DNA of 64,000 nucleotides from Blastocatellia bacterium (GTDB lineage Bacteria; Acidobacteriota; Blastocatellia; UBA7656). The notes beneath the pieces were generated by a model. It made no database searches, was not told where the DNA came from, and saw only the letters and a list, made by a program, of their open reading frames with translations. Below, piece after piece: positions 4,410-40,078 of this stretch (position 1 is the stretch's first letter; every line of letters starts with the position of its first letter). The position numbers and the translations under genes were made by a program. The stretch spans positions 358,874-422,873 of the forward strand of contig CAVSKO010000002.1 in the NCBI GenBank assembly GCA_963728545.1, in the 5' to 3' direction.

Positions 4410-6843
4410 TCACTCATACCTCAACGCCACCATTGGATCCACTCTTGTAGCTCGGCGCGCGGGAAAGATGGTTGCGACCATCGCCGCCGCTGCCAGGACA
4501 AGCGACACCAGCGCGAAGGTCGTAAGATCGGTCGTCCCCACGTCAAAAAGAAGGCCCGACATTATGCTTGATAACACCACGGACAAGGCCACTGCTCCTG
4601 CGAATCCTATGACCAGGCCGATTCCGGTCAGCAGCATGCTTTGGCCTACAACCATCTTCAGTATGTCCAATGATTGCGCGCCGAGCGCCATCCTTATGCC
4701 TATCTCGTGCGTTCGCTGCGTGACTGAATAGGCGATAACGCCGTAGATGCCGACGACGGCTAAGACGAGCGCGACGGAAGCGAAGATGACAAGCAGCAGC
4801 ATGTTGAAACGCTGCCGCGATATTGATTCGGAAAGCACATCCTCCATCGTGCTGATCTCGGCGATGGGCTGTTCAGGGTCTATAGCGCGCACTTCGGCTT
4901 GCGCTGCCGACGCCAACGATCCCGGATCGGTGTGTGTGTGCAGCACAAAATTCATGAAAGCGTAAGGCTCACGCGCATGCGGCCAATAAATGGTCGGTTT
5001 TACTTCAAGGTTCAATCCCATATCGCGAATGTCGCCGACTACGCCCACGATCTCATCCGGCTCGTCGCTGTCCCAGCTTATTACAACGCGCTTGCCGAGC
5101 GGGTCTTCATTAGGCCAGTAGAGCCGCGCCATCGTTTCGTTTATCAAAAGCACTCTCTGGCTCTTCGCCGTATCTCGCTCGTCGAGCATTCGGCCCTTAA
5201 TCAAAGGTATCGCCATCGCGTCAAAATAGCTCGGCGTCACCACTCTCACGTCTGTAACGGGCTGTTCGCCGGGCGGGGGCTCGGGGCGATCTGTGATAGT
5301 GAAACCGGTGGCGGATCGCTGGCCCGCCAGTTGCAAAAAGTTTATCGCGCCTACGGACTCGACCCCTGGCAAGACGCGGAGCCTGTCTTCCAACTGCTTG
5401 AAGAAGGCTATGCGTTGCGCTTCCTGACTATATTTTGATCCCGGGAGCTGGAGTTTCAGAGTCAAAATATTTTCAGTCCTGAAACCGGGCTGTACATTTT
5501 GAAGCCGCATGAAGCTTTTGATCATCAATCCCGCGCCGATCAAAAGCACGAGCGACAAGGCCACTTCGGCTATGACGAAAAGATTCCGAACCATGCGGCT
5601 GCTGCCCGCAACCCTGGTCCCGCGCCCGCCTTCCTTGAGCGTCGCGTTGAGATCGGGCTTCGATGCTTGAAGCGCCGGCACCAGGCCAAAGATTATCCCT
5701 GTTAAAAACGATATGATGAGCGTAAACACAAGCACGCTCCAATCGATTGCGATTTCGTTAAGCCGAGGTATGTTATCAGGGCTGACGGCTACGAGAAGTT
5801 TCAACCCCCAGTAAGCGAGCAACAGCCCGAGCGCGCCGCCGAAAGTTGAAAGAAGCACGCTTTCAACCATCAACTGGTAGATGATTCTTGACCGCGCTGC
5901 GCCGAGGGCTGTCCTGAGCGCCAACTCTTTTTGCCTTGTCGCAGCGCGAGCAAGCAAAAGGTTGGCGACGTTCGCGCAGGCTATCAACAAAACGAAACCT
6001 ACCGCACCGAGCAATAACAGTATGATCGGCCTTATGTCTCCCACGATCTGTTCGTGGAGCGGAACCAGGTTCACATTCCATCCGGCATTAAATTTCAGAT
6101 TGGTCTGCTCTAATTGAGCCGCTATGCCTTCCATCTCTGCCTGGGCCTGGTCGCGGGTCACACCCGGCTTTAGCCTGGCGACGCTCAGCAGGAATCGGCC
6201 CGATGTCGCTCGATAATCAACGGCGGGGTCTAAGGCCAACGGGAGCCATATTTCCGTCTCCCGGTTCATGAAAATAAAAATCGGCGGGCATGACGCCGAC
6301 GACCGTATAACTCCTGCCGTTCAGCGTCACCGATTGGCTGAGTATTTCGTCGCGGCCTCCGAACAACTGTTGCCAGAGGCGATGGCTCAGAATCACGACC
6401 AGTTCATTTCCGGGCCGTCCTTCTTCTTCAGTAAAGGTGCGCCCGCGCAAGGCCTGAACTCCAAGCACGTTGAAAAAGCTGACAGTCACAATCTGAGCGT
6501 CGAGCACTCTAGGCTCACCCTGGCCCGTCAGGTTTCGCTGGCTGTTGGTGGTGAGCGCAGCCATCGGATCGAGCGTCTGGGTTTGTCGCGTCCAGTCTAA
6601 ATAATTAGCGGGAGAGACGACATTGGTAGCGCGATTTCGCGGAATGTTTCTCTCCCAAACCATAACCAGCCTGTCAGGGTCCGTGTAGGGGAGAGGGCGA
6701 AGAAGGACGCCGTTGACGACACTGAAGATGGCTGTGGTTGCTCCGATGCCTAGCGCAAGCGCGATTATCGCAACCGCCGTAAATCCTGGTTGCTTCCTAA
6801 GCACGCGCAAACCGTAACGAATATCTTGCAGAACTTTATCCAT
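4410..6843 (-). pseudogene. MacB-like / FtsX-family ABC transporter permease (Acidobacterial duplicated orphan permease type), split by apparent frameshift near 6220-6300
   Basis: Fragment 6217..6843 is ~65% identical to N-terminus of intact paralog 10716..13142 (MDxxLQDxRY...GFTxxAxLALALGIxAxxAIFSVVN); fragment 4410..6269 matches the remainder incl. two FtsX 4-TM modules; 53-nt out-of-frame overlap. Confidence 0.6.
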
Positions 6844-27199: not shown

Positions 27200-28942
27200 A
27201 TGTCGGCTAAACTGGGCGAGACCCTTCTAAAAGATAATCTAATCACACCTCAGCAGCTCAAAGAAGCGCTCGACTTTCAGAGAGTCAACGGTGGAAGGCT
27301 CGCCTCTACCCTCGTAAGACTCGGAATGCTTTCCGATGAAGAGGTCACGGCAGTCTTGAGCCGCCAGTACGGCGTCCCTTCCGTAAACCTCGACCTTTTT
27401 GAAGTCGATCAGGCCGCAGTCGCCCTTGTGCCGCAAGAGACGGCCGAGCGTTACTCGGTGCTGCCGCTGTCTCGCGTAGGCGCGACGCTCACGCTAGCGA
27501 TGGTCGATCCCACAAACGTCTTTGCCATAGACGACATAAAATTTATGACGGGCCTTTCGGTCGAGCCTGTCGTAGTCTCTGAGACGACACTCAATGCCGC
27601 GATAAAGAAATACTACGGCACGACGCGCGAGATGGAGCTTGCGCGCGTGATGGAAGACCTGGTCGCGGAGACGACGAACAAAAACCCTTACGGCGAAGAC
27701 ATCGACCAGCTTGACATCGAAGAGCACGAAGAGGAGATCGACCTCGAAAACCTCGAAAGGATGGCCGAGGATGCGCCCGTAGTAAAACTCGTAAACGTCA
27801 TCCTCGTAGACGCGCTCCGCCGGGGGGCATCCGACATTCATATCGAGCCTTACGAAAAAGAGTTTCGCGTTCGCTTCCGCATGGACGGCGTGCTTTACAA
27901 CATAATGGCTCCGCCTCTGAAGATGCGTGACGCGCTCACGTCGCGAATGAAGATCATGGCCCGGCTCGACATAGCCGAAAAGCGGCTTCCACAAGATGGC
28001 CGCATAAAGATCAGAGTTCGGCTCGACGGGCGCTCGCGCGAGCTGGATTTCCGCGTATCAACATTGCCCACTATCTTTGGCGAAAAGATGGTGCTTCGCC
28101 TGCTTGATAAAGAGAATCTGCGGCTCGACATGACTCAGTTAGGCTTTGAGGCCGCGAGCCTGGATAAGTTCAAGCGGAACATCTCGAAGCCTTACGGGAT
28201 GGTGCTGGTCACGGGGCCGACGGGTTCCGGAAAAACGTCTACGCTTTACTCGGCGCTGCAAAGCCTGAACACGCCGGAAACGAACATAATGACTGCGGAA
28301 GACCCGGTCGAGTTCAACCTGCCCGGCATAAACCAGGTGCAGATGAAAGAATCGATAGGGCTGAATTTCGCGGCCGCGCTCCGCTCATTCTTGCGCCAGG
28401 ACCCGAACATCATTCTCGTCGGCGAAATCCGAGACTTCGAGACGGCAGAGATCGCGGTCAAAGCCGCTCTGACCGGCCACCTCGTGCTTTCCACCCTGCA
28501 CACAAACGACGCGCCTTCGACTATCAGCCGGTTGATGAACATGGGTATCGAGCCCTTTCTTGTCGCAACTTCTGTGAACTTGATCCAGGCGCAGCGACTT
28601 GTGCGAAGAATTTGTAAAGAGTGCAAAGCCGAGCACCACGCCCCGGCAGAGGCCATGATCGACGTGGGATTCCCGGCCGCCGAGGTCAAAGAGATAAAGA
28701 CGTTCAAAGGCATAGGATGTGGAAATTGTAATGGTACTGGCTACAAGGGCCGAGTCGGTCTTTATGAAGTTATGGAGATAACCGACGAGATACGCGAGTT
28801 GATTCTGGTCGGCGCGTCGGGCTTGGAGCTACGCCGCAAGGCCATTGACGAAGGTATGTTGACGCTCCGCCAGAGCGGGCTTGAGAAGATCAGGCAAGGA
28901 TTGACTACGGTAGAGGAAGTCGTGAGAGAAACAGTTAAGTGA
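27200..28942 (+). CDS. pilB: type IV pilus assembly ATPase PilB (GspE family)
   Basis: N-terminal GSPII_E_N domain, Walker A VTGPTGSGKTST, Asp/His boxes, C-terminal tetracysteine CKECK...CGNCNGTG. Confidence 0.9.
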   Translation: MSAKLGETLLKDNLITPQQLKEALDFQRVNGGRLASTLVRLGMLSDEEVTAVLSRQYGVPSVNLDLFEVDQAAVALVPQETAERYSVLPLSRVGATLTLAMVDPTNVFAIDDIKFMTGLSVEPVVVSETTLNAAIKKYYGTTREMELARVMEDLVAETTNKNPYGEDIDQLDIEEHEEEIDLENLERMAEDAPVVKLVNVILVDALRRGASDIHIEPYEKEFRVRFRMDGVLYNIMAPPLKMRDALTSRMKIMARLDIAEKRLPQDGRIKIRVRLDGRSRELDFRVSTLPTIFGEKMVLRLLDKENLRLDMTQLGFEAASLDKFKRNISKPYGMVLVTGPTGSGKTSTLYSALQSLNTPETNIMTAEDPVEFNLPGINQVQMKESIGLNFAAALRSFLRQDPNIILVGEIRDFETAEIAVKAALTGHLVLSTLHTNDAPSTISRLMNMGIEPFLVATSVNLIQAQRLVRRICKECKAEHHAPAEAMIDVGFPAAEVKEIKTFKGIGCGNCNGTGYKGRVGLYEVMEITDEIRELILVGASGLELRRKAIDEGMLTLRQSGLEKIRQGLTTVEEVVRETVK

Positions 28943-31741: not shown

Positions 31742-33472
31742 ATGCGTAGAAAGCTTCAATGGTTGTTGGTCTCGCGCCTGGCCTTGGCGGTTGGACTGCT
31801 TGCGGCTGTGGCACTCTTTGAGCGAGATGACGCCAAGCGTTCGTTTATACCCGTCCTCTCGATGCTCGCGGGCGCGGTAGTGGTGTTGTCGGCTTTCTAT
31901 TTCATCGCGCAGCGCACTTCGTCCCGGCTCAAGTTACAGGGGTACATCCAGCTTTCAATCGACCTCGCGCTCGTCACCTGGCTCGTCTATTTGACGGGCG
32001 ATGTCGAGTCGGCCTTCCTTGCGCTATATCTGGTAATTATCTTTGCCGCAAGCACACTATTTGGTAGGCCAGGCGTCCCTCTGCTCGGAGCTTCTGCGGC
32101 TGTGATGTACGCAGTGACGGGCGTACTGGCGATGAGCGGGCTGGCCCCGCGCGCCGACGGGTGGGCGCCTTACGATCTAAAGAGCCTGCCCTGGGCAGAG
32201 TTCATGTTCTCGCTGAACCTTACAGCCATCTTTGCTATCGCGGCGCTGTCGAGCCATCTGGCAGAGCGGATTCACCGCAGCGAATCCGAACTGGCTACGG
32301 CCACATCAGAGCTTGCAACCGCTACGAAAGAGTTGGCCGATAATCGCCTTGTTAACGACCGTATCATAGAGAGCATGCGAAGCGGCCTTGTGACGACCGA
32401 CCTGCGCGGCAATATTCTAACGTTCAACCGCGCCGCCGAAGAGATAACAGGTTACAAAGCGCAGGACGTTAAGGGCGACAATATCTCTTCGATTTTCGGG
32501 GACATTGACAAACAGATTGAAGTCGGGTTGGAATCGATCCGCACGCGGTCACGCTTGCCGCGATTTGATATCGGGTGCAAGACAGCAGACGGGCGCGACC
32601 TGCACCTGGGCTTTTCTGTCGCGCCGCTGGTTGACGAAGCGCCGGAACTGCAAACAAATGCAAACGGCTTCCCGTTTCGCGGTTACGTCTTGACCTTTCA
32701 AGACCTGACCGAAGTGATGGAGTTGGAGCGCGAAGTTCGCCGCCAGGAGCGGCTCGCTGCGCTCGGCAAGATGGCTGCGGGGCTTGCGCACGAGATTCGA
32801 AACCCGCTCGCATCCATGCGCGGGTCTGTCCAGGTGCTCGCAAGCGAGCTGAGCCTTTCGCGCGACCAATCTCAGTTGATGGAGATAGTCCTGCGCGAAT
32901 CTGACAGGCTGAATCGAATCGTTTCGGACTTTCTCACTTATGCCAGGCCGCCTCGGATCGAGCGAACGGTCATCGAACTGTCCAGCATCTTGTCAGAGAC
33001 CGTGGCCTTGCTCCGCAACAGCCCCGAGCTGACACCCGATCATCAGGTGGCGGAGGATTTTCCCGCCGAGCCTGTTCACTATAACGGCGACCCGAACCAG
33101 ATTCGACAGATCTTCTGGAACCTCGCTCGCAACGCCATACAAGCGATGCCGAGCGGCGGAGAGCTGCGCGTGACGCTTGAAGCCGCCCGCGGGCGCGAAG
33201 TGACTATAACCTTTAGCGACACGGGTCAGGGCATGAGCCGGGAGCAGAAGGAGAGAATGTTCGAGCCGTTCAACTCTTCGAGCGGCGGGACGGGCCTTGG
33301 GATGGCGATAGTTTATCAACTTGTTCGGGACCACAACGGAAAGATAGACGTTGAAAGCGAAGCCGGAAACGGCACTCGTATCTCGATAAAGCTTCCGGGC
33401 AGCGGGCGGGTCAAACGCGAGTTTGACTCCCCGGTTCCAGAGACATCGGAAGCAATAGTAACCCGCGTTTGA
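31742..33472 (+). CDS. pilS: sensor histidine kinase PilS-like (multi-TM, PAS, HisKA, HATPase_c)
   Basis: N-terminal 6 TM; PAS; H-box AAGLAHEIRNPL; N/G1/G2 boxes; paired with NtrC-type regulator upstream of sigma-54-driven pilins. Confidence 0.75.
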   Translation: MRRKLQWLLVSRLALAVGLLAAVALFERDDAKRSFIPVLSMLAGAVVVLSAFYFIAQRTSSRLKLQGYIQLSIDLALVTWLVYLTGDVESAFLALYLVIIFAASTLFGRPGVPLLGASAAVMYAVTGVLAMSGLAPRADGWAPYDLKSLPWAEFMFSLNLTAIFAIAALSSHLAERIHRSESELATATSELATATKELADNRLVNDRIIESMRSGLVTTDLRGNILTFNRAAEEITGYKAQDVKGDNISSIFGDIDKQIEVGLESIRTRSRLPRFDIGCKTADGRDLHLGFSVAPLVDEAPELQTNANGFPFRGYVLTFQDLTEVMELEREVRRQERLAALGKMAAGLAHEIRNPLASMRGSVQVLASELSLSRDQSQLMEIVLRESDRLNRIVSDFLTYARPPRIERTVIELSSILSETVALLRNSPELTPDHQVAEDFPAEPVHYNGDPNQIRQIFWNLARNAIQAMPSGGELRVTLEAARGREVTITFSDTGQGMSREQKERMFEPFNSSSGGTGLGMAIVYQLVRDHNGKIDVESEAGNGTRISIKLPGSGRVKREFDSPVPETSEAIVTRV

Positions 33473-33487: not shown

Positions 33488-34978
33488 GTGATGGAGAAGA
33501 TACTGGTTGTAGATGACGAGCGCAGCATGCGCGAATTGCTTGAACTCGTTTTAAAGCGCGAGGGTTACGCCGTTCACACGGCAGAGAATGGGACCCGCGC
33601 ACTTGAGTTCGTGCGCCAGAATGTTTATGACCTTCTCATTTCGGATGTAAAGATGCCCGACATCAACGGCATCGAGCTTCTTGAGCGCGTCCGCGAAATC
33701 TCGCCCGAAACAATGGTCATAATGATAACCGCATTCGCCACCGTGGACACGGCTCGCCGCGCGTTCAAGCTTGGCGCTGAAGATTTCGTAATTAAAGATT
33801 CGGGCTTCGATGTCGAAGAGTTGAAAGTGACGGTTGGCAAGGTGCTTGAGAAGAAACACCTGCGCCAGGAAAACGTGCTTTTGAAACGTGAGCTTCGCCA
33901 GCGCAACTCGCTCGACAACATCATAGGCCGATCACCACAGATGCAGGCCGTCTACCAGATGATCGAGACCGTCGCCGCTACGACTTCGACCGTGCTTATA
34001 ACCGGCGAGTCGGGGACCGGCAAAGAGCTTGTCGCGCGCGCTATTCACAGTATGTCAAACCGCGCGGGCGCTCCGTTTGTGTCTATCAACTGCGGCGCAT
34101 TCACGGAAACGCTTTTGGAGTCCGAGCTGTTCGGCTATATGAAGGGATCGTTTACGGGCGCGGTATCTAACCGCAAGGGGCTGTTTGAGGCAGCCGAAGG
34201 GGGAACGATCTTTCTCGACGAGATAGGTGAGACGACGCCTGCCATGCAGGTCAAGATGCTCCGCGTGCTTCAGGAGCGAAGCATTCGCCGCGTCGGCGGC
34301 ATTGAAGAGATTCCCGTAGACGTTCGGGTCATCGCCGCTACCAACCGTGATCTTGCGCAGATGGTTGAAGACGGCACATTCCGCAACGACCTGTTTTATC
34401 GTATCAGCGTGATTCCTATCGAAATGCCACCGTTGCGGTCTCGTCGCGCAGACATACCTGACCTTGTGCGCCACTTTCTTGAAAAGTACAGCGCGGCTGC
34501 CGGTCGGCCCACGCTTGAGATTTCCGAAGAGGCAATGCGTTATCTTGAGTCGTATGACTGGCCGGGCAATGTTCGAGAGCTTGAGAACACTATCGAACGG
34601 GCCGTCGCGCTTGAGCCTGGTCGCATCGCGGGAGTAGACCGCCAAAGAGTCGAATCAGGCCCGCTCGCAGGATTGCCGGACCGCCGTCTCAAGCCTGAGT
34701 GGTTGCCTGAGCGAATATTGAAATACAAGCCCAGGAACATTACAGACATCGATTTACCGGAAGACGGGTTGGATTTGGAAGCCTATCTGTCTCAGCTCGA
34801 AAAGGACTACATTATCCGCGCGCTGCAACGCACGGGCGGCAACCAGACTCGCGCCGCAGAGATACTGAATATGTCGGTCCGCAGTCTTCGTCATCTTCTG
34901 GACAAACATAAGATTCGCCAGACGGCGAGCCTTCTGCGCGAGTCTACGGCTGTCGGCGACAGCGCGGCGAATAAATGA
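33488..34978 (+). CDS. pilR: sigma-54-dependent response regulator PilR-like (NtrC family)
   Basis: Receiver domain (DDE...D...K), AAA+ sigma-54 interaction domain GESGTGKE / GAFTGA-like, C-terminal Fis-type HTH. Confidence 0.8.
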
Positions 34979-35228
34979 TCGCATAGACCGGCAATCTATT
35001 GTCGGCATAACGGCCAAGACTCTTTCAAGCAACGTTCTCTGGACGAGACTGCGCCTCTGCCTATAACACCGCCTTCTGTTTCACCCCCACTACAGGATGC
35101 ATTCGAAATATAATTTTGAATGCGATCCCTGAACAGGGGATCATTACATCCTTTTGCTCACACTATAAACCCGCAACATTCATACGGCGCTCGAAACGAG
35201 TTAGTAAAAGCTGACCGACCTGCTGAGA

Positions 35229-35244
35229 TGGCATAACCCTTGCT
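35229..35244 (+). promoter_or_regulatory. sigma-54 promoter (TGGCAT-N5-TTGCT; GG/GC at -24/-12 spacing) upstream of pilin 1
   Basis: Exact -24 GG / -12 GC geometry, 57 nt upstream of ATG. Confidence 0.6.
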
Positions 35245-35300
35245 GATCATTACAATGGTTTTCGAACAAGCAGGGCGATTTTATGTTCAAGGAGATGGTT

Positions 35301-35726
35301 ATGAAAAGTGAGCGTGGCTTTTCGTTGATAGAGCTTTTAGTAGTAGTCGGCATTCTTATGATAATTTCGGCGATAGCTATACCGGGGCTTCGCAAAGCAA
35401 GGAATAATGCTAACTCAGGATCGGCGATACAATCGCTCAGAACGCTTACGACAGCCGAACACTTATACGAGAGAAGGTTCCATCAATACGCCACGTTAGC
35501 CCAACTTGTGCCCGAAGGCACGATTGATACTCATCTCGGAACAGGATTGAAGAGCGGTTACAGTTTCACGCTGACTCTGAGCGCAGGAAACCAGAATTTT
35601 TCCTGCACAGCAACGCCACTTGATGATCCTCCTAACATGCCCCATTACTTTGTCGATCAGACCGGCGTCATCCGTTACAACGACGGTGCGCCTGCCAATG
35701 CATCAAGCTCTCCGATACCGAGGTAG
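35301..35726 (+). CDS. type IV pilin (prepilin, N-terminal GFSLIELLVV methylation motif)
   Basis: Leader MKSERG|FSLIELL, Glu+5; RBS aaggag 6 nt upstream; track start 35283 is 6 codons earlier. Confidence 0.8.
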   Translation: MKSERGFSLIELLVVVGILMIISAIAIPGLRKARNNANSGSAIQSLRTLTTAEHLYERRFHQYATLAQLVPEGTIDTHLGTGLKSGYSFTLTLSAGNQNFSCTATPLDDPPNMPHYFVDQTGVIRYNDGAPANASSSPIPR

Positions 35727-35871
35727 GACCATCCGTTTCTGACAAAAAGTGGTAATGATTTCTAACGCAATTTGTTAGGAAAAGTCTATGAAAAGAGCGC
35801 CTCGAATCCAGGATTCTAGAAAGCTTGTTTGCTCACAACAGTTTCCTGCGACCATTCCGATTTAGAACACA

Positions 35872-35887
35872 TGGCACAAGCGTTGCC
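35872..35887 (+). promoter_or_regulatory. sigma-54 promoter (TGGCAC-N5-TTGCC) upstream of pilin 2
   Basis: Consensus -24/-12 elements ~90 nt upstream of ATG 35978. Confidence 0.6.
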
Positions 35888-35977
35888 GTTATCAAGCTTG
35901 AGATTAAAGTTAGTTTGGCCGCTGAGGACAACATTGCCTACGGCGAGACAAAAGAAAAAAGGAGCAAAAGGAGCATT

Positions 35978-36463
35978 ATGAAGAAAGAGAACGGATTTTC
36001 ACTGATAGAGCTGCTGATAGTGGTAGCCATCATAGGCATCATCGCCGCTATCGCAATCCCGAATTTGCTTAAGTCCCGACAGGCGGCCAACGAGTCGTCA
36101 GCCATTGGATCGGTTCGCACGTTGGGTACGGCGCAAGCAACTTACCAATCTACTCGCGGTCGAGGTAAAGACTTCGCGGTCTCTCTGGCTGCAATGAACA
36201 CGGAAGGCTTGATCGACTCAGCGTTGTCGAGCGGTGCCAAGAGCGGCTTCGCGTTCACGTGCGTAGGCGTGGCAGCGACTGCAACAGCACCGTCGTACTT
36301 TGACAGCTCGGCTCAGCCGCAATCGTCCGGTACGTTCGGAACAGGCAACAGGTCATTCTATTCGAACGAGACGTTTGTGATATATGCATTGGATGGCGGT
36401 ACAGCGCCGACAGCGGCATTCCCGGTGAGGGTGCCTGCTGCACCTGCCTTACCGATTGAATAG
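35978..36463 (+). CDS. pilA: type IV pilin, tandem duplicate copy 1 (161 aa; track ORF 35825 over-extended)
   Basis: MKKENG|FSLIELLIVVAIIGIIAAIAIPNLL; RBS aaggag; differs from copy 2 at 5 of 161 residues. Confidence 0.8.
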   Translation: MKKENGFSLIELLIVVAIIGIIAAIAIPNLLKSRQAANESSAIGSVRTLGTAQATYQSTRGRGKDFAVSLAAMNTEGLIDSALSSGAKSGFAFTCVGVAATATAPSYFDSSAQPQSSGTFGTGNRSFYSNETFVIYALDGGTAPTAAFPVRVPAAPALPIE

Positions 36464-36490
36464 AACCTCTATCAATCTGGTTGAGTGTGA

Positions 36491-36531
36491 AACGGGCGAG
36501 CCGCCAAAAAGGCTTGCCCGTTCTTTTTTTT
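36491..36531 (+). terminator. Rho-independent terminator after pilin 2 (stem aacgggcgagcc/ggcttgcccgtt + T8)
   Basis: GC stem followed by ttcttttttttattt. Confidence 0.8.
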
Positions 36532-36685
36532 ATTTAAAGAAATTTATGTGTCTCAATTGAAATTGAACAAAAAATGGCATTCATCACTTAACGAAATTTG
36601 GGAATGATAACCTGCCGCCAACTGTTTTCAAAAAGCTTTTCTTTAAGAGACACCAGTTAAAACAAGAGCGACTTTCTATTTCGCG

Positions 36686-36701
36686 TGGCACAGCCTTTGC
36701 C
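36686..36701 (+). promoter_or_regulatory. sigma-54 promoter (TGGCAC-N5-TTGCC) upstream of pilin 3
   Basis: Consensus -24/-12 ~90 nt upstream of ATG 36792. Confidence 0.6.
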
Positions 36702-36791
36702 AATGCTAGTAACGCGATCTGTCGTAGTTCGGCCGCTAGGGACAAAACGACCTACGGCGAGACAAAAGAAAAAAGGAGCAAAAGGAGCATT

Positions 36792-37277
36792 ATGAAGAAA
36801 GAGAACGGATTTTCACTGATAGAGCTGCTGATAGTGGTAGCCATCATAGGCATCATCGCCGCTATCGCAATCCCGAATTTGCTTAAGTCCCGACAGGCGG
36901 CCAACGAGTCGTCAGCCATTGGATCGGTTCGCACGTTGGGTACGGCGCAAGCAACTTACCAATCTACTCGCGGTCGAGGTAAAGACTTCGCGGTCTCTCT
37001 GGCTGCAATGAACACGGAAGGCTTGATCAACTCAGCGTTGTCGAGCGGCAACAAGAGCGGTTTCACATTCACGTGCGTAGGCGTGGCGGCGACTGCAACA
37101 GCACCGTCATACTTTGATGCCTCAGCGCGTCCGCAATCGTCCGGAACATTTGGAACAGGCAACAGGTCATTCTATTCGAACGAGACGTTTGTGATATATG
37201 CATTGGATGGCGGTACAGCGCCGACAGCGGCATTCCCGGTGAGGGTGCCTGCTGCACCTGCCTTACCGATTGAATAA
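36792..37277 (+). CDS. pilA: type IV pilin, tandem duplicate copy 2 (161 aa)
   Basis: Identical to copy 1 except D/N, A/N, A/T, S/A, Q/R in the central region; identical 45 nt upstream incl. RBS. Confidence 0.8.
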   Translation: MKKENGFSLIELLIVVAIIGIIAAIAIPNLLKSRQAANESSAIGSVRTLGTAQATYQSTRGRGKDFAVSLAAMNTEGLINSALSSGNKSGFTFTCVGVAATATAPSYFDASARPQSSGTFGTGNRSFYSNETFVIYALDGGTAPTAAFPVRVPAAPALPIE

Positions 37278-37307
37278 GTCGGATTATCAATAGATCAACT
37301 GATCATA

Positions 37308-37350
37308 AAACGGGTGAGCCTTTCCGAGGCTCACCCGTTTGTGTTATAGT
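37308..37350 (+). terminator. stem-loop terminator after pilin 3 (aaacgggtgagcc / ggctcacccgttt)
   Basis: 13-bp perfect stem, followed by T-rich tract. Confidence 0.65.
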
Positions 37351-37469
37351 TTCTTCATCAGCTCATAAATTATGCGGAACCGTTCAGGGTCGCCCGCGTT
37401 CGACTTTGTAAGAGAGCACAAAGCTTTACCCTATTCGGGGAAGCTCAATCTGGAGCTGAGGAGAGTACT

Positions 37470-37952
37470 ATGAAGAAGAGACAAGAGCGAGGTTTTTCGC
37501 TTATCGAGTTGCTTATCGTGGTTGCCATTATCGGTATTATCGCCGCACTCGCAATTCCCAGCTTGTTGAAATCTCAACAGGCAGCTCGCGAGACGGCTGC
37601 AATCGGTGAAGTCTCGGCTATTGGCAAAGCGCAAGTGACTTACCAGATGACAAAGGGTCGCGGGAAATTCGGGACGCTTGCACAGCTTGGTGAAGACGGC
37701 GGGCTTAATGCCGCGTTAGCATCCGGCACAAAGAGCGGTTATCTTTACACTTCTGATCCTGTCGTTGTCGAGGGATTGCCCGGGATGTACGACACGACTG
37801 CGAAACCCAGTTCAACGGGGAAATTCGGAACGGGCAATATTTCCTATTACTCTAATGAGTCTAATACTATTTACGAAGCAGAAGGCGGGACGCCGCCTAC
37901 GTGCACTCCGCAAGACCGCATTCCAAAAGACGGTCAGATCATAACAAGGTAA
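37470..37952 (+). CDS. type IV pilin, divergent paralog (160 aa)
   Basis: MKKRQERG|FSLIELLIVVAIIGIIAALAIPSLL; RBS gaggag. Confidence 0.8.
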   Translation: MKKRQERGFSLIELLIVVAIIGIIAALAIPSLLKSQQAARETAAIGEVSAIGKAQVTYQMTKGRGKFGTLAQLGEDGGLNAALASGTKSGYLYTSDPVVVEGLPGMYDTTAKPSSTGKFGTGNISYYSNESNTIYEAEGGTPPTCTPQDRIPKDGQIITR

Positions 37953-37962
37953 GCAGAATTTA

Positions 37963-38001
37963 ATGGGCCGGGGAGCGCTCTCGGAGTTTGCCCCGGCCCA
38001 T
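37963..38001 (+). terminator. stem-loop after pilin 4 (tgggccgggg / ccccggccca)
   Basis: 10-bp GC stem; no clear T-run. Confidence 0.45.
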
Positions 38002-38116
38002 CAACTCTTGATCGAGTTGCTGAAGTATTGAAAGCGTGAGATCGAAAACTCGCGCTCAGTCCCTTGCCCCTGCGAGCAGTCCCGCCCCCGCCAGGAAAAG
38101 TTTCTTATAAATCATC

Positions 38117-40078
38117 TTGAAATCTACACGCACGAAAACCACAGGCAAACACGCGCGCGCGCGCGAAGCCTCAGCCAACGCGCACGATAAAGATTCATTC
38201 TCACTCGTAGAGCAACTGAGCGCGGGCCGCGTAATAATGCTCATTTGTCTCGTCGCGTTTCTGGCTTATGCGAACTCTCTCGGCGGGGATTTTGTCTTTG
38301 ACGACAACGAGCAGATAGTCGAAAACCAGAATCTGCGTTCCTGGGATAACATCACGCGCGGGTTTACCACTCACGTGTGGGCTTTTCGCGAGCAAGGCGA
38401 AACTACGAACGTCCCCGCGCCACTGCCGTACTACAGGCCGCTCTTTACTCTGATGCTGACGGTCGAGTATCAGCTATTCGGGTTGCAGCCGCAGTGGTGG
38501 CATCTTGTGAGCCTGATTCTTCATATCATCTGTGCGGTCGAAATCTTTTATATCATTCTGGTATTATCGCGCCGAAAACTGGTTGCCTTAATCGCCTCGT
38601 TACTGTTTGCTGTCCACCCTGTCCACGCAGAATCTGTAAGCTGGATCAGCGGGATGACCGATCCGTTGTTTGGCGTATTCTTCCTCGCGTCGTTTTACTT
38701 TTATCTCAAGCATCGTGACGGTCATCCACCCGCAGCCCCATCGGGGAAAGAGAAGGCGTCCGCGTCGTCGGAGAAAAGAAGGTATCTTGTGTGGTCGCTT
38801 CTGTTTTTCATCGTCGCGGCTTTCGCTAAAGAAACAGCCCTCAGCCTCGTTATTTTGATATTCGGCTACGAAGCGGTCATCTCAAATGGCAAGATGAGCG
38901 CTCGCTTGATAGAAGCTGCAAAGCGCGCGTTGCCTTTTGTCGCGGCGGCTTTGGTTTACCTGATCCCGCGATATCTGGTTCTCGGTGAAATGATGTGGAG
39001 CAATCCTCAAGCTCCGGATCGGCCTTTCTCTCACACGCTTTTTACGCTGCCTTTTGTGATTTGCAGTTACTTGCTGCACCTCGTATGGCCCGTCGGCCTG
39101 AGCGTCACTTATGACACGAGGTTTATAACTTCAGCGGCGTCTCCAACATTCTTCTTGCTCGCCATTATTCTCGCCGTCATCACAGGCTTACTGATCTATT
39201 TTCGCGCTCGTATCAGCAAACAAGTATGGCTGGCGTTGTTGATGATTATTGTCCCGCTATTACCTGTGCTTAAACTCGGACAGGTTTCGCAAGAGCAGTA
39301 CCTGGTCTTTGATCATTACCTGTATATCTCTGTTGCAGGGTTGGGTTATCTGGCGGGGCTTGGGTTGTTTAGGCTTTCGCAGTCGAGGACCGAAAAATTG
39401 AGCCTTGCGGCGGCGGCATTGTTAGTGGTCGCGCTTGCAGCCGGGACGCATTTTGAGAATAAGGCGTGGGCCAATTCTTATGCGGTCTGGTCGAATGCCG
39501 CGCGCGTGAGCCCGAATTATTGGGCGCCTCAATACAACACCGCGCTAGAGTTGATTAAGCTCAAGCAATACGACAGCGCGCGCGCGATGCTTGAGCGAGC
39601 GAGTGCGCTCAAGCCTGACGAGCCGACAATCTATGACGCGCTAGGCCGCGCTCATCTTGGCATGAGTGATCTCGAAGCTGCCGAAGCGAGTATCAAGCGC
39701 GCGCTTGAGATCAACCCTCAGATGGTAGAATCGCTCAATAATCTCGGCACTGTTTATTTTGAGGCGAAAGATTATGAGAAGGCCGAAAAGTATTTTACCG
39801 AAGCGTTGCGTGTAAACCCGAAAGCGACGGCAGTGCAGTACAATCTGGCTCGCTGCTACTCTCGCTTGGGCCGGGACAATGACGCCGTGAGGGAATTTGA
39901 ACAGTTCTTAAAATCGTCGCCCAATGATGCCGAAGCCCTTTATGAGCTTGGAGAGGTCTATAAAAAAAGAGGGCGGCGCGATGACGCTATTCGCTCTTTC
40001 GAGCGCGCGCTTGATTTGACAAAATCACAAGAACTGAAGGAAAAGATTTCAAACAGTTTAAGCGGCTTAAAACGATAG
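38117..40078 (+). CDS. TMTC/PMT-like GT-C-fold glycosyltransferase (DUF1736-type multi-TM domain) with C-terminal TPR repeats
   Basis: First-loop acidic motif VFDDNEQIV; YRPLFTLMLTVEY and WWHLVSLILHI motifs typical of TMTC/PMT_2 family; >=10 TM; 5-6 TPR repeats at C-terminus. Confidence 0.6.
   Translation: MKSTRTKTTGKHARAREASANAHDKDSFSLVEQLSAGRVIMLICLVAFLAYANSLGGDFVFDDNEQIVENQNLRSWDNITRGFTTHVWAFREQGETTNVPAPLPYYRPLFTLMLTVEYQLFGLQPQWWHLVSLILHIICAVEIFYIILVLSRRKLVALIASLLFAVHPVHAESVSWISGMTDPLFGVFFLASFYFYLKHRDGHPPAAPSGKEKASASSEKRRYLVWSLLFFIVAAFAKETALSLVILIFGYEAVISNGKMSARLIEAAKRALPFVAAALVYLIPRYLVLGEMMWSNPQAPDRPFSHTLFTLPFVICSYLLHLVWPVGLSVTYDTRFITSAASPTFFLLAIILAVITGLLIYFRARISKQVWLALLMIIVPLLPVLKLGQVSQEQYLVFDHYLYISVAGLGYLAGLGLFRLSQSRTEKLSLAAAALLVVALAAGTHFENKAWANSYAVWSNAARVSPNYWAPQYNTALELIKLKQYDSARAMLERASALKPDEPTIYDALGRAHLGMSDLEAAEASIKRALEINPQMVESLNNLGTVYFEAKDYEKAEKYFTEALRVNPKATAVQYNLARCYSRLGRDNDAVREFEQFLKSSPNDAEALYELGEVYKKRGRRDDAIRSFERALDLTKSQELKEKISNSLSGLKR

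Follow-up and report, generated by a model that had tools for sequence, protein, structure and literature searches.

In the 64,000-nucleotide stretch of contig CAVSKO010000002.1 analyzed here (hereafter the window), the type IVa pilus locus of a Blastocatellia-type acidobacterium runs pilB-pilT-pilC-pilS-pilR and then into four pilin genes, of which the first three are each preceded by a sigma-54 (-24/-12) element (P1, P2 and P3; Table 1). We conclude that these elements are very probably real sigma-54 promoters, on the grounds of their statistics, position, strand, conservation among orthologs and family-wide association with pilin genes. On the same grounds we consider it likely that they are served by the adjacent PilS/PilR pair, as the initial annotation of this DNA had proposed; direct reading also found the three motifs exactly where that annotation had placed them.

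The pattern TGGCAY-N5-TTGCY (TGGCAYNNNNNTTGCY) has exactly three matches on the two strands of the 64 kb, at 35229, 35872 and 36686, all on the plus strand, which is the coding strand. Shuffled sequence gave a mean of 0.07 matches, and none of 100 shuffles reached three. Each match holds GG and GC exactly 10 bases apart inside a frame of the TGGCAC-N5-TTGCW type, is intergenic, and lies at a plausible distance from a start codon, with its last base 57 nt (P1) or 91 nt (both P2 and P3) before the ATGs at 35301, 35978 and 36792; the distance had been given as 57-95 nt, of which the lower value stands and the upper does not. Loosening the score to GG-N10-GC with six of seven flanking matches added only two sites, at 5320 and 50834, both within long open reading frames (ORFs). 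On a sigma-54 matrix P1-P3 scored 15-18, against a best of -0.2 in the 300 nt before pilin 4. The transcription starts in Table 1 are predictions from the usual spacing to the -12 element.

PilR-based scans supplied 80 loci each from genomes and metagenomes for comparison, 161 sequences with the window. The closest PilR matches, at 83-90% identity, came from Blastocatellia or Acidobacteriota metagenome-assembled genomes, and six loci (L001, L002 (partial), L082, L087, L088 and L090) carried an orthologous pilin cluster 3' of pilR, with the adjacency of pilR to pilin 1 kept. Three pilin classes occur in fixed order across these clusters: the pilin 1 class (141-150 residues), the class of window pilins 2 and 3 (161-167 residues, C-terminus ...PIE) and the pilin 4 class (158-160 residues, C-terminus QDRxPKDG...). 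Because L001 has a single copy of the middle class, we take window pilins 2 and 3 to be a tandem duplication. The P1 box was present as TGGCAY-N5-TTGCT in 7 of 7 orthologous loci (with CGGCAC in L087), while the rest of the intergenic DNA was essentially unalignable; by sequence comparison it is a clean phylogenetic footprint. The P2-class box is kept at the orthologous position in the window (twice) and in all six other clusters, its -12 C having been lost in L001 (TTGTG) and L090 (TTGTC).

Beyond the immediate orthologs, strict GG-N10-GC occurred at 72 sites in the 2.36 million positions of 80 PilR loci and the window, and 48 of these sites lay 15-135 nt before a pilin start. The strict filter, which requires both GG and GC, misses variants of the form TGGCAC-N5-TTGT/TTGA, which a soft matrix recovers. 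Such variants mark the first pilin after pilR in distant Blastocatellia (L011, L012, L014-L018 and L094-L096), where a perfect TGGCAC is followed by TTGT or TTGA, so that the whole lineage has lost a -12 C that is normally all but invariant.

It is very improbable that P1-P3 are chance matches, or sigma-70 promoters that happen to resemble -24/-12 elements. A weak sigma-70-like match, ATGGCA-17-TACAAT (9 of 12), does overlap P1; it was rejected as a candidate since TACAAT is not conserved in the orthologs, where GG-N10-GC is. No sigma-70-like site is listed on the plus strand near P2 or P3, and the ties of the motif to pilins across 160 loci, like the shuffles, argue against coincidence. Some observations nonetheless weigh against the sigma-54 interpretation. 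Since the sites used to build the matrix had been selected by the motif, core scores on it are circular in part, and the loss of the -12 C or the -24 GG in some relatives indicates that such boxes can decay and that some copies are perhaps inactive. A search of the 64-kb window for an RpoN box found none, a result that says nothing on the whole genome, and the presence of rpoN can only be presumed from the conserved activator with its intact sigma-54 contact loop.

That activator, the product of the pilR-type gene, combines a receiver, a sigma-54 AAA+ domain and a Fis-type helix-turn-helix, with GSFTGA as its contact loop; the AAA+ assignment made initially was borne out by Sigma54_activat at E = 2e-73. 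It alone within the 64 kb has both a GAFTGA-like loop and the Walker A motif of bacterial enhancer-binding proteins, and is thus the only sigma-54 activator of the window. No NCBIfam equivalog cut-off was reached by this protein, whose best matches there, AtoC and NtrC, were both below their own cut-offs, and no PilR-named model was among the matches listed. The neighboring kinase has the six-helix membrane domain of PilS (PF25323 6TM_PilS, 52.7 bits, cut-off 27). The pair has genes for a type IV pilus on one side and, on the other, a pilin gene with a sigma-54 box: PilB scored 797 bits with TIGR02538, above the curated cut-off of 676, a PilT-like ATPase and then PilC (T2SSF) are encoded between PilB and pilS, and a domain search found the prepilin N-methylation motif in all four ORFs 3' of pilR.

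A recurrent palindrome upstream of the pilin promoters points to where PilR may bind. Heptamers containing TGTC or GACA were enriched 5' of pilin-linked promoters and aligned as GACA-N5-TGTC. This strict form has 56 copies in the 1.82 Mb of the 161 sequences; 33 of them lie within 300 nt 5' of one of 100 pilin-linked -24 boxes, and 29 of those 33 fall at -160 to -110, peaking sharply between -139 and -146. The resulting consensus, TGACA-W5-TGTCA (for example, TGACAAAAATGTCA in Terriglobia), is position-locked 5' of pilin -24 boxes across the Acidobacteriota. On a matrix for this upstream activating sequence (UAS), where scores of at least 12 come at about 0.02 sites per 200 nt, the two sites before P2 scored 15.7 (at -132) and 4.2 (at -109), and site 1 before P3 scored 12.7 (at -121). 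The P3 site aligns with the P2 enhancer block, indicating that the duplication carried the enhancer along. Every P2-class promoter, twice in the window and in each of the six orthologous clusters, has the block TGACAAAAAGTGGYA at -121 to -133, directly 3' of the pilin 1 stop, and in the window and close relatives a weaker second site, TAnCnnnnTTTGTTA, follows 23-24 nt downstream. Enhancer and promoter are separated by AT-rich DNA (31-43% GC); the IHF consensus WATCAANNNNTTR was sought in the promoter regions and not found, and Pseudomonas-type TGT-N10/11-ACA sites were absent 5' of P1-P3 and their orthologs, except for one chance-looking match in L088. In L082 (8962-9646), the second member of a tandem pair of pilin 2-class genes is preceded by TGACAC where TGGCAC would stand, with no enhancer block further upstream; its promoter seems to be decaying next to a gene that is still intact, and this copy serves as a natural contrast to the intact P2-class sites.

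We judge it reasonably likely, from this sequence evidence, that the TGACA-W5-TGTCA-type sites 5' of P2 and P3 are PilR enhancers. Countering this, the two window copies have three mismatches to the palindrome, and palindromes with three mismatches are not clearly enriched in the window (14 observed, 7.8 expected), so that the case for the P2 and P3 enhancers is one of position and orthology only. A further difficulty is P1, whose class of promoters has no PilR-type site within 260 nt upstream in any of the seven orthologs, and whose upstream regions in those orthologs held no conserved word or palindrome beyond chance.

Every P2-class promoter does have such a site, and pilin 1 falls into a separate sequence class; both points would fit P1 being a real sigma-54 promoter that answers to an activator other than PilR, with the signal for pilin 1 distinct from that for pilins 2 and 3. 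We regard this as a minority possibility. The 64 kb encode no sigma-54 activator besides PilR, whose gene lies next to pilin 1 in a conserved arrangement. Enhancers of the NtrC type can work at a distance and irrespective of orientation, and the P2 enhancer, about 500 nt downstream of P1, could serve that promoter as well. An enhancer for P1 had been proposed in the initial annotation, namely an inverted repeat upstream of it. The repeat exists, as GCATTCGAAAT-ATA-ATTTTGAATGC with 10 of 11 positions complementary, although it lies at 35099-35123 rather than 35105-35129, an offset of 6 nt. It is a near-perfect palindrome with 11-bp arms and unique in the window, and its center, 118 nt upstream of the T of the P1 TGGCAT, falls in the phylum-wide range of enhancer distances, this geometry being all that speaks for the proposal. 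No counterpart was found in the orthologous P1 regions of L001, L002, L082, L087, L088 and L090, themselves without a common palindrome or word, which makes the repeat a poor enhancer candidate. It scored 0.5 on the UAS matrix, being unrelated in sequence to TGACA-W5-TGTCA, and does not match the Pseudomonas consensus TGT-N11-ACA (PMC8035640). Together with an adjacent second repeat it folds as RNA into two adjacent hairpins (-22.4 kcal/mol, z = -5.6), and this predicted double hairpin could equally well be a 3' structure on the pilR transcript. Its service as a PilR enhancer is thus unlikely, and the sites before P2 and P3 are better candidates for that role.

The pilin 4 class has no sigma-54-like box upstream in any of five genomes (best matrix scores -4.2 to -0.2). 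The degenerate match GAGCAC-N5-TTTAC noted initially does lie at 37414-37429 and, as described, lacks GG and GC; it is not conserved, its equivalent in L001 being GAAGACagagcCATCC (GAAGAC...CATCC). Of the two fates suggested for this gene, different regulation or silence, the former agrees with our results and the latter does not: pilin 4 is intact in 5 of 5 genomes with a ratio of nonsynonymous to synonymous substitution rates (dN/dS) of 0.06-0.20, synonymous sites being saturated, which indicates purifying selection and means that the gene is no silent relic. The region upstream of pilin 4 is more conserved than those of the other pilins (alignments A2, 79%, and A4) and contains a TGnTATAAT-like extended -10 box, whose form TGyTATA(G/A)T is constant in five loci while adjoining bases vary. 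TGnTATA(A/G)T has two copies in the 64 kb, both 5' of genes on the correct strand, the other one 43 nt before a heptosyltransferase gene. Across the window and nine close-relative loci, where 16.5% of sequence is intergenic, 10 of 12 such boxes were intergenic with a same-strand gene start downstream; five of these ten are the orthologous pilin 4 sites and hence not independent, and the other seven boxes comprise five intergenic and two coding cases.

The lack of a sigma-54 box, combined with a conserved, rare and promoter-biased TGyTATA(G/A)T, favors sigma-70, and we lean slightly toward pilin 4 being driven by an extended -10 promoter of that type rather than being silent. The box overlaps the T-tract region of the terminator hairpin after pilin 3, and is perhaps conserved as part of that terminator, which detracts from its reading as a promoter; there is also no canonical -35 box upstream of it, and the promoter listing gives no sigma-70 site there. 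Pilin 4 could instead be without its own promoter, either reached only by read-through from P3 across the hairpin at 37310-37340 or unexpressed. The hairpin is followed by an interrupted T-tract (GTTTGTGTT), so that termination there is perhaps leaky, as read-through would require. We hold this account to be the less probable, because the hairpin is very stable and conserved, because TGyTATA(G/A)T is kept in five loci and is of a promoter-associated type, and because silence is contradicted by the dN/dS values and the five intact orthologs.

We thus propose the following mechanism. At pilins 1, 2 and 3, each with one sigma-54 promoter, sigma-54 RNA polymerase would bind as a closed complex needing ATP-driven remodeling by PilR, whose activity would be set by the membrane kinase PilS. 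For pilins 2 and 3, PilR most likely acts on the two-site enhancer some 120-130 nt 5' of the -24 box, a degenerate form of TGACA-W5-TGTCA, and would contact the promoter by looping of the DNA across the AT-rich spacer. The promoter of pilin 1, with no recognizable enhancer, perhaps uses the enhancer about 500 nt downstream, past the stop codon of its own gene, or another activator. Pilin 4 would be insulated by the strong terminator and most likely be expressed from a sigma-70 extended -10 promoter directly after it.

The coding sequences of pilins 2 and 3 differ by 19 substitutions (five amino-acid changes), all at nt 238-360, plus the stop codon, whereas in the alignment their promoter regions are much more diverged. 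Near-identical ends of the coding sequences beside diverged promoters suggest that gene conversion has acted on the coding parts, and that selection keeps both regulatory sets. The pilin cassette as a whole is a variable insert at this position, given that several very close relatives are without it: L083 (7492-10126), L086 (2269-5127), L084 and L085, with PilR 88-89% identical, have no pilins 3' of pilR, their place being taken by a small ORF and transketolase. More tentatively, the four pilins may be a repertoire, kept in this Blastocatellia lineage, whose members are wired differently, with one enhancer-less sigma-54 promoter, one or two bearing a new type of PilR enhancer, and one sigma-70 pilin with a structured leader; the composition of the pilus could then change with separate signals, and the 120-nt variable core of pilins 2 and 3 would add antigenic or functional variation.

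In Myxococcus xanthus the gene order is pilB-pilT-pilC-pilS-pilR-pilA, the same as in the window. There too an NtrC-type PilR is encoded with PilS beside the pilin gene, and it is required for expression of pilA, which is described as sigma-54-dependent (Wu & Kaiser 1997, as cited in PMC3333781; PMC11841059). Unlike M. xanthus, the window has four tandem pilins with three separate sigma-54 promoters and one non-sigma-54 gene, and its pilins are short (141-161 residues): their best NCBIfam match is the Myxococcus PilA model, in its N-terminal part, at 59 bits against an equivalog cut-off of 400. Control of the major pilin gene by PilR and sigma-54, with pilR beside its target, is known from Pseudomonas aeruginosa and Geobacter sulfurreducens as well as from M. 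xanthus (PMC3333781, PMC2725144, PMC6058289, PMC11841059), and at the level of sequence our locus appears to have every element of this design. In G. sulfurreducens, where as here the activator is encoded beside its target, pilA lies directly 3' of pilR, and its RpoN-dependent promoter was confirmed by 5' rapid amplification of cDNA ends (Juarez 2009; PMC2725144); that is one pilA promoter, against three sigma-54 promoters in the window, and we found no TGACA-W5-TGTCA enhancer for Geobacter in the literature searched. P. aeruginosa shares with the window a PilS of six transmembrane helices, an enhancer-binding PilR, a -24/-12 promoter and upstream PilR sites, those of the window being candidates (Jin 1994; PMC6058289). 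Its published PilR site reads TGT-N11-ACA, or else TGT-N11-AGA together with GTCT elements (PMC8035640, PMC6058289), unlike the GACA-N5-TGTC arrangement of the window half-sites. Closer in layout is NmpR, an NtrC-family protein of M. xanthus that uses two tandem GCGCA-N5-TGCGC sites (PMC11841059): the window likewise has putative 5-bp half-sites, an N5 gap and two sites 23-24 nt apart, 5' of a sigma-54 promoter, although its half-sites are TGACA/TGTCA rather than GCGCA/TGCGC.

To a specialist, sigma-54 control of pilins at this locus is expected biology, the classic pilin switch; the added value is the phylum-wide candidate PilR site and the mixed wiring. The PilS/PilR/sigma-54 switch, known experimentally from Proteobacteria and Myxococcota, is here extended to the Acidobacteriota, soil bacteria that are abundant but in which experimental genetics hardly exists, and the candidate consensus TGACA-W5-TGTCA, about 140 nt 5' of the -24 box, could serve to predict PilR regulons in the phylum. 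The locus also indicates that simple co-regulation does not hold for tandem pilin paralogs. A literature search found neither a PilS/PilR pilin system of this kind nor a TGACA-W5-TGTCA site described for Acidobacteria, which is not proof of novelty.

Table 1. Features of the pilS-pilR-pilin region, in window coordinates
Feature	Position	Strand	Details
pilS-type sensor histidine kinase gene	31742..33472	+	Pfam 6TM_PilS, PAS, HisKA, HATPase_c
pilR-type gene for sigma-54 enhancer-binding response regulator	33488..34978	+	Response_reg, Sigma54_activat, AAA_lid_14, HTH_8
Inverted repeat (35099-35123) and adjacent second repeat (35124-35142)	35099..35142	+	genome-specific
P1, sigma-54 -24/-12 element	35229..35244	+	TGGCATaacccTTGCT; predicted start near 35255
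Pilin 1	35301..35726	+	141 aa; class III signal GFSLIELL; N_methyl domain; orthologs at same position in L001, L002, L082, L087, L088, L090
Candidate PilR enhancer for P2	35740..35777	+	site 1 TGACAAAAAGTGGTA, 35740-35754; weaker site 2 TAACGCAATTTGTTA, 35763-35777, starting 23 nt downstream of site 1
P2, sigma-54 -24/-12 element	35872..35887	+	TGGCACaagcgTTGCC; predicted start near 35898
Hairpin in 5' leader of pilin 2	35917..35944	+	GGCCGCTGAGG...CCTACGGC; eight pairs
Pilin 2	35978..36463	+	161 aa
Intrinsic terminator after pilin 2	36491..36522	+	12-bp stem, then T8 run; -24 kcal/mol, z = -4.3
Candidate PilR enhancer for P3	36565..36603	+	site 1 GAACAAAAAATGGCA, 36565-36579; site 2 homolog TAACGAAATTTGGGA, 36589-36603
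P3, sigma-54 -24/-12 element	36686..36701	+	TGGCACagcctTTGCC; predicted start near 36712
Pilin 3	36792..37277	+	near-identical paralog of pilin 2
Terminator hairpin after pilin 3	37310..37340	+	-27.5 kcal/mol, z = -7.7; conserved in 5 loci
Candidate sigma-70 extended -10 box for pilin 4	37342..37350	+	TGtTATAGT; TGyTATA(G/A)T in 5 of 5 orthologous loci
Degenerate match GAGCAC-N5-TTTAC	37414..37429	+	not a sigma-54 promoter; without GG and GC
Pilin 4	37470..37952	+	160 aa; distinct class; intact in 5 genomes

Hairpins with strongly negative z-scores follow pilins 2, 3 and 4 but not pilin 1. The leader hairpin of the pilin 2 class (GGCCGCTAGG...CCTACGGC) recurs before pilin 3 (36731-36758); its sequence is kept across eight leaders with no covariation, and it may be an mRNA-stabilizing or protein-binding element. 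The leader of pilin 4 (37351-37469) has an invariant GAAC...GTTCGATTTCGCAAGAGA frame enclosing a GC-rich hairpin that differs per genome, and CAGCTC near its 5' end could pair with GAGCTG just before the ribosome-binding site; its folds were not clearly better than those of shuffles, and covariation among the five sequences was weak. With a permissive E-value, Rfam gave only sub-threshold noise for 34900-38200, with no riboswitch or known leader.

Two neighboring genes may also bear on the pilus. The N-terminus of PilB (27200-28942) matches the MshE-type cyclic-di-GMP-binding motif (NF053729, 57.9 bits, cut-off 38), suggesting that pilus assembly is under cyclic-di-GMP control as well. Directly 3' of the pilins, and at the same place in L001, is a gene (38117-40078) for a 653-residue protein with TPR repeats near its C-terminus and an N-terminal part that looks hydrophobic by eye; it may have a function connected with the pilins, such as that of an enzyme modifying them.

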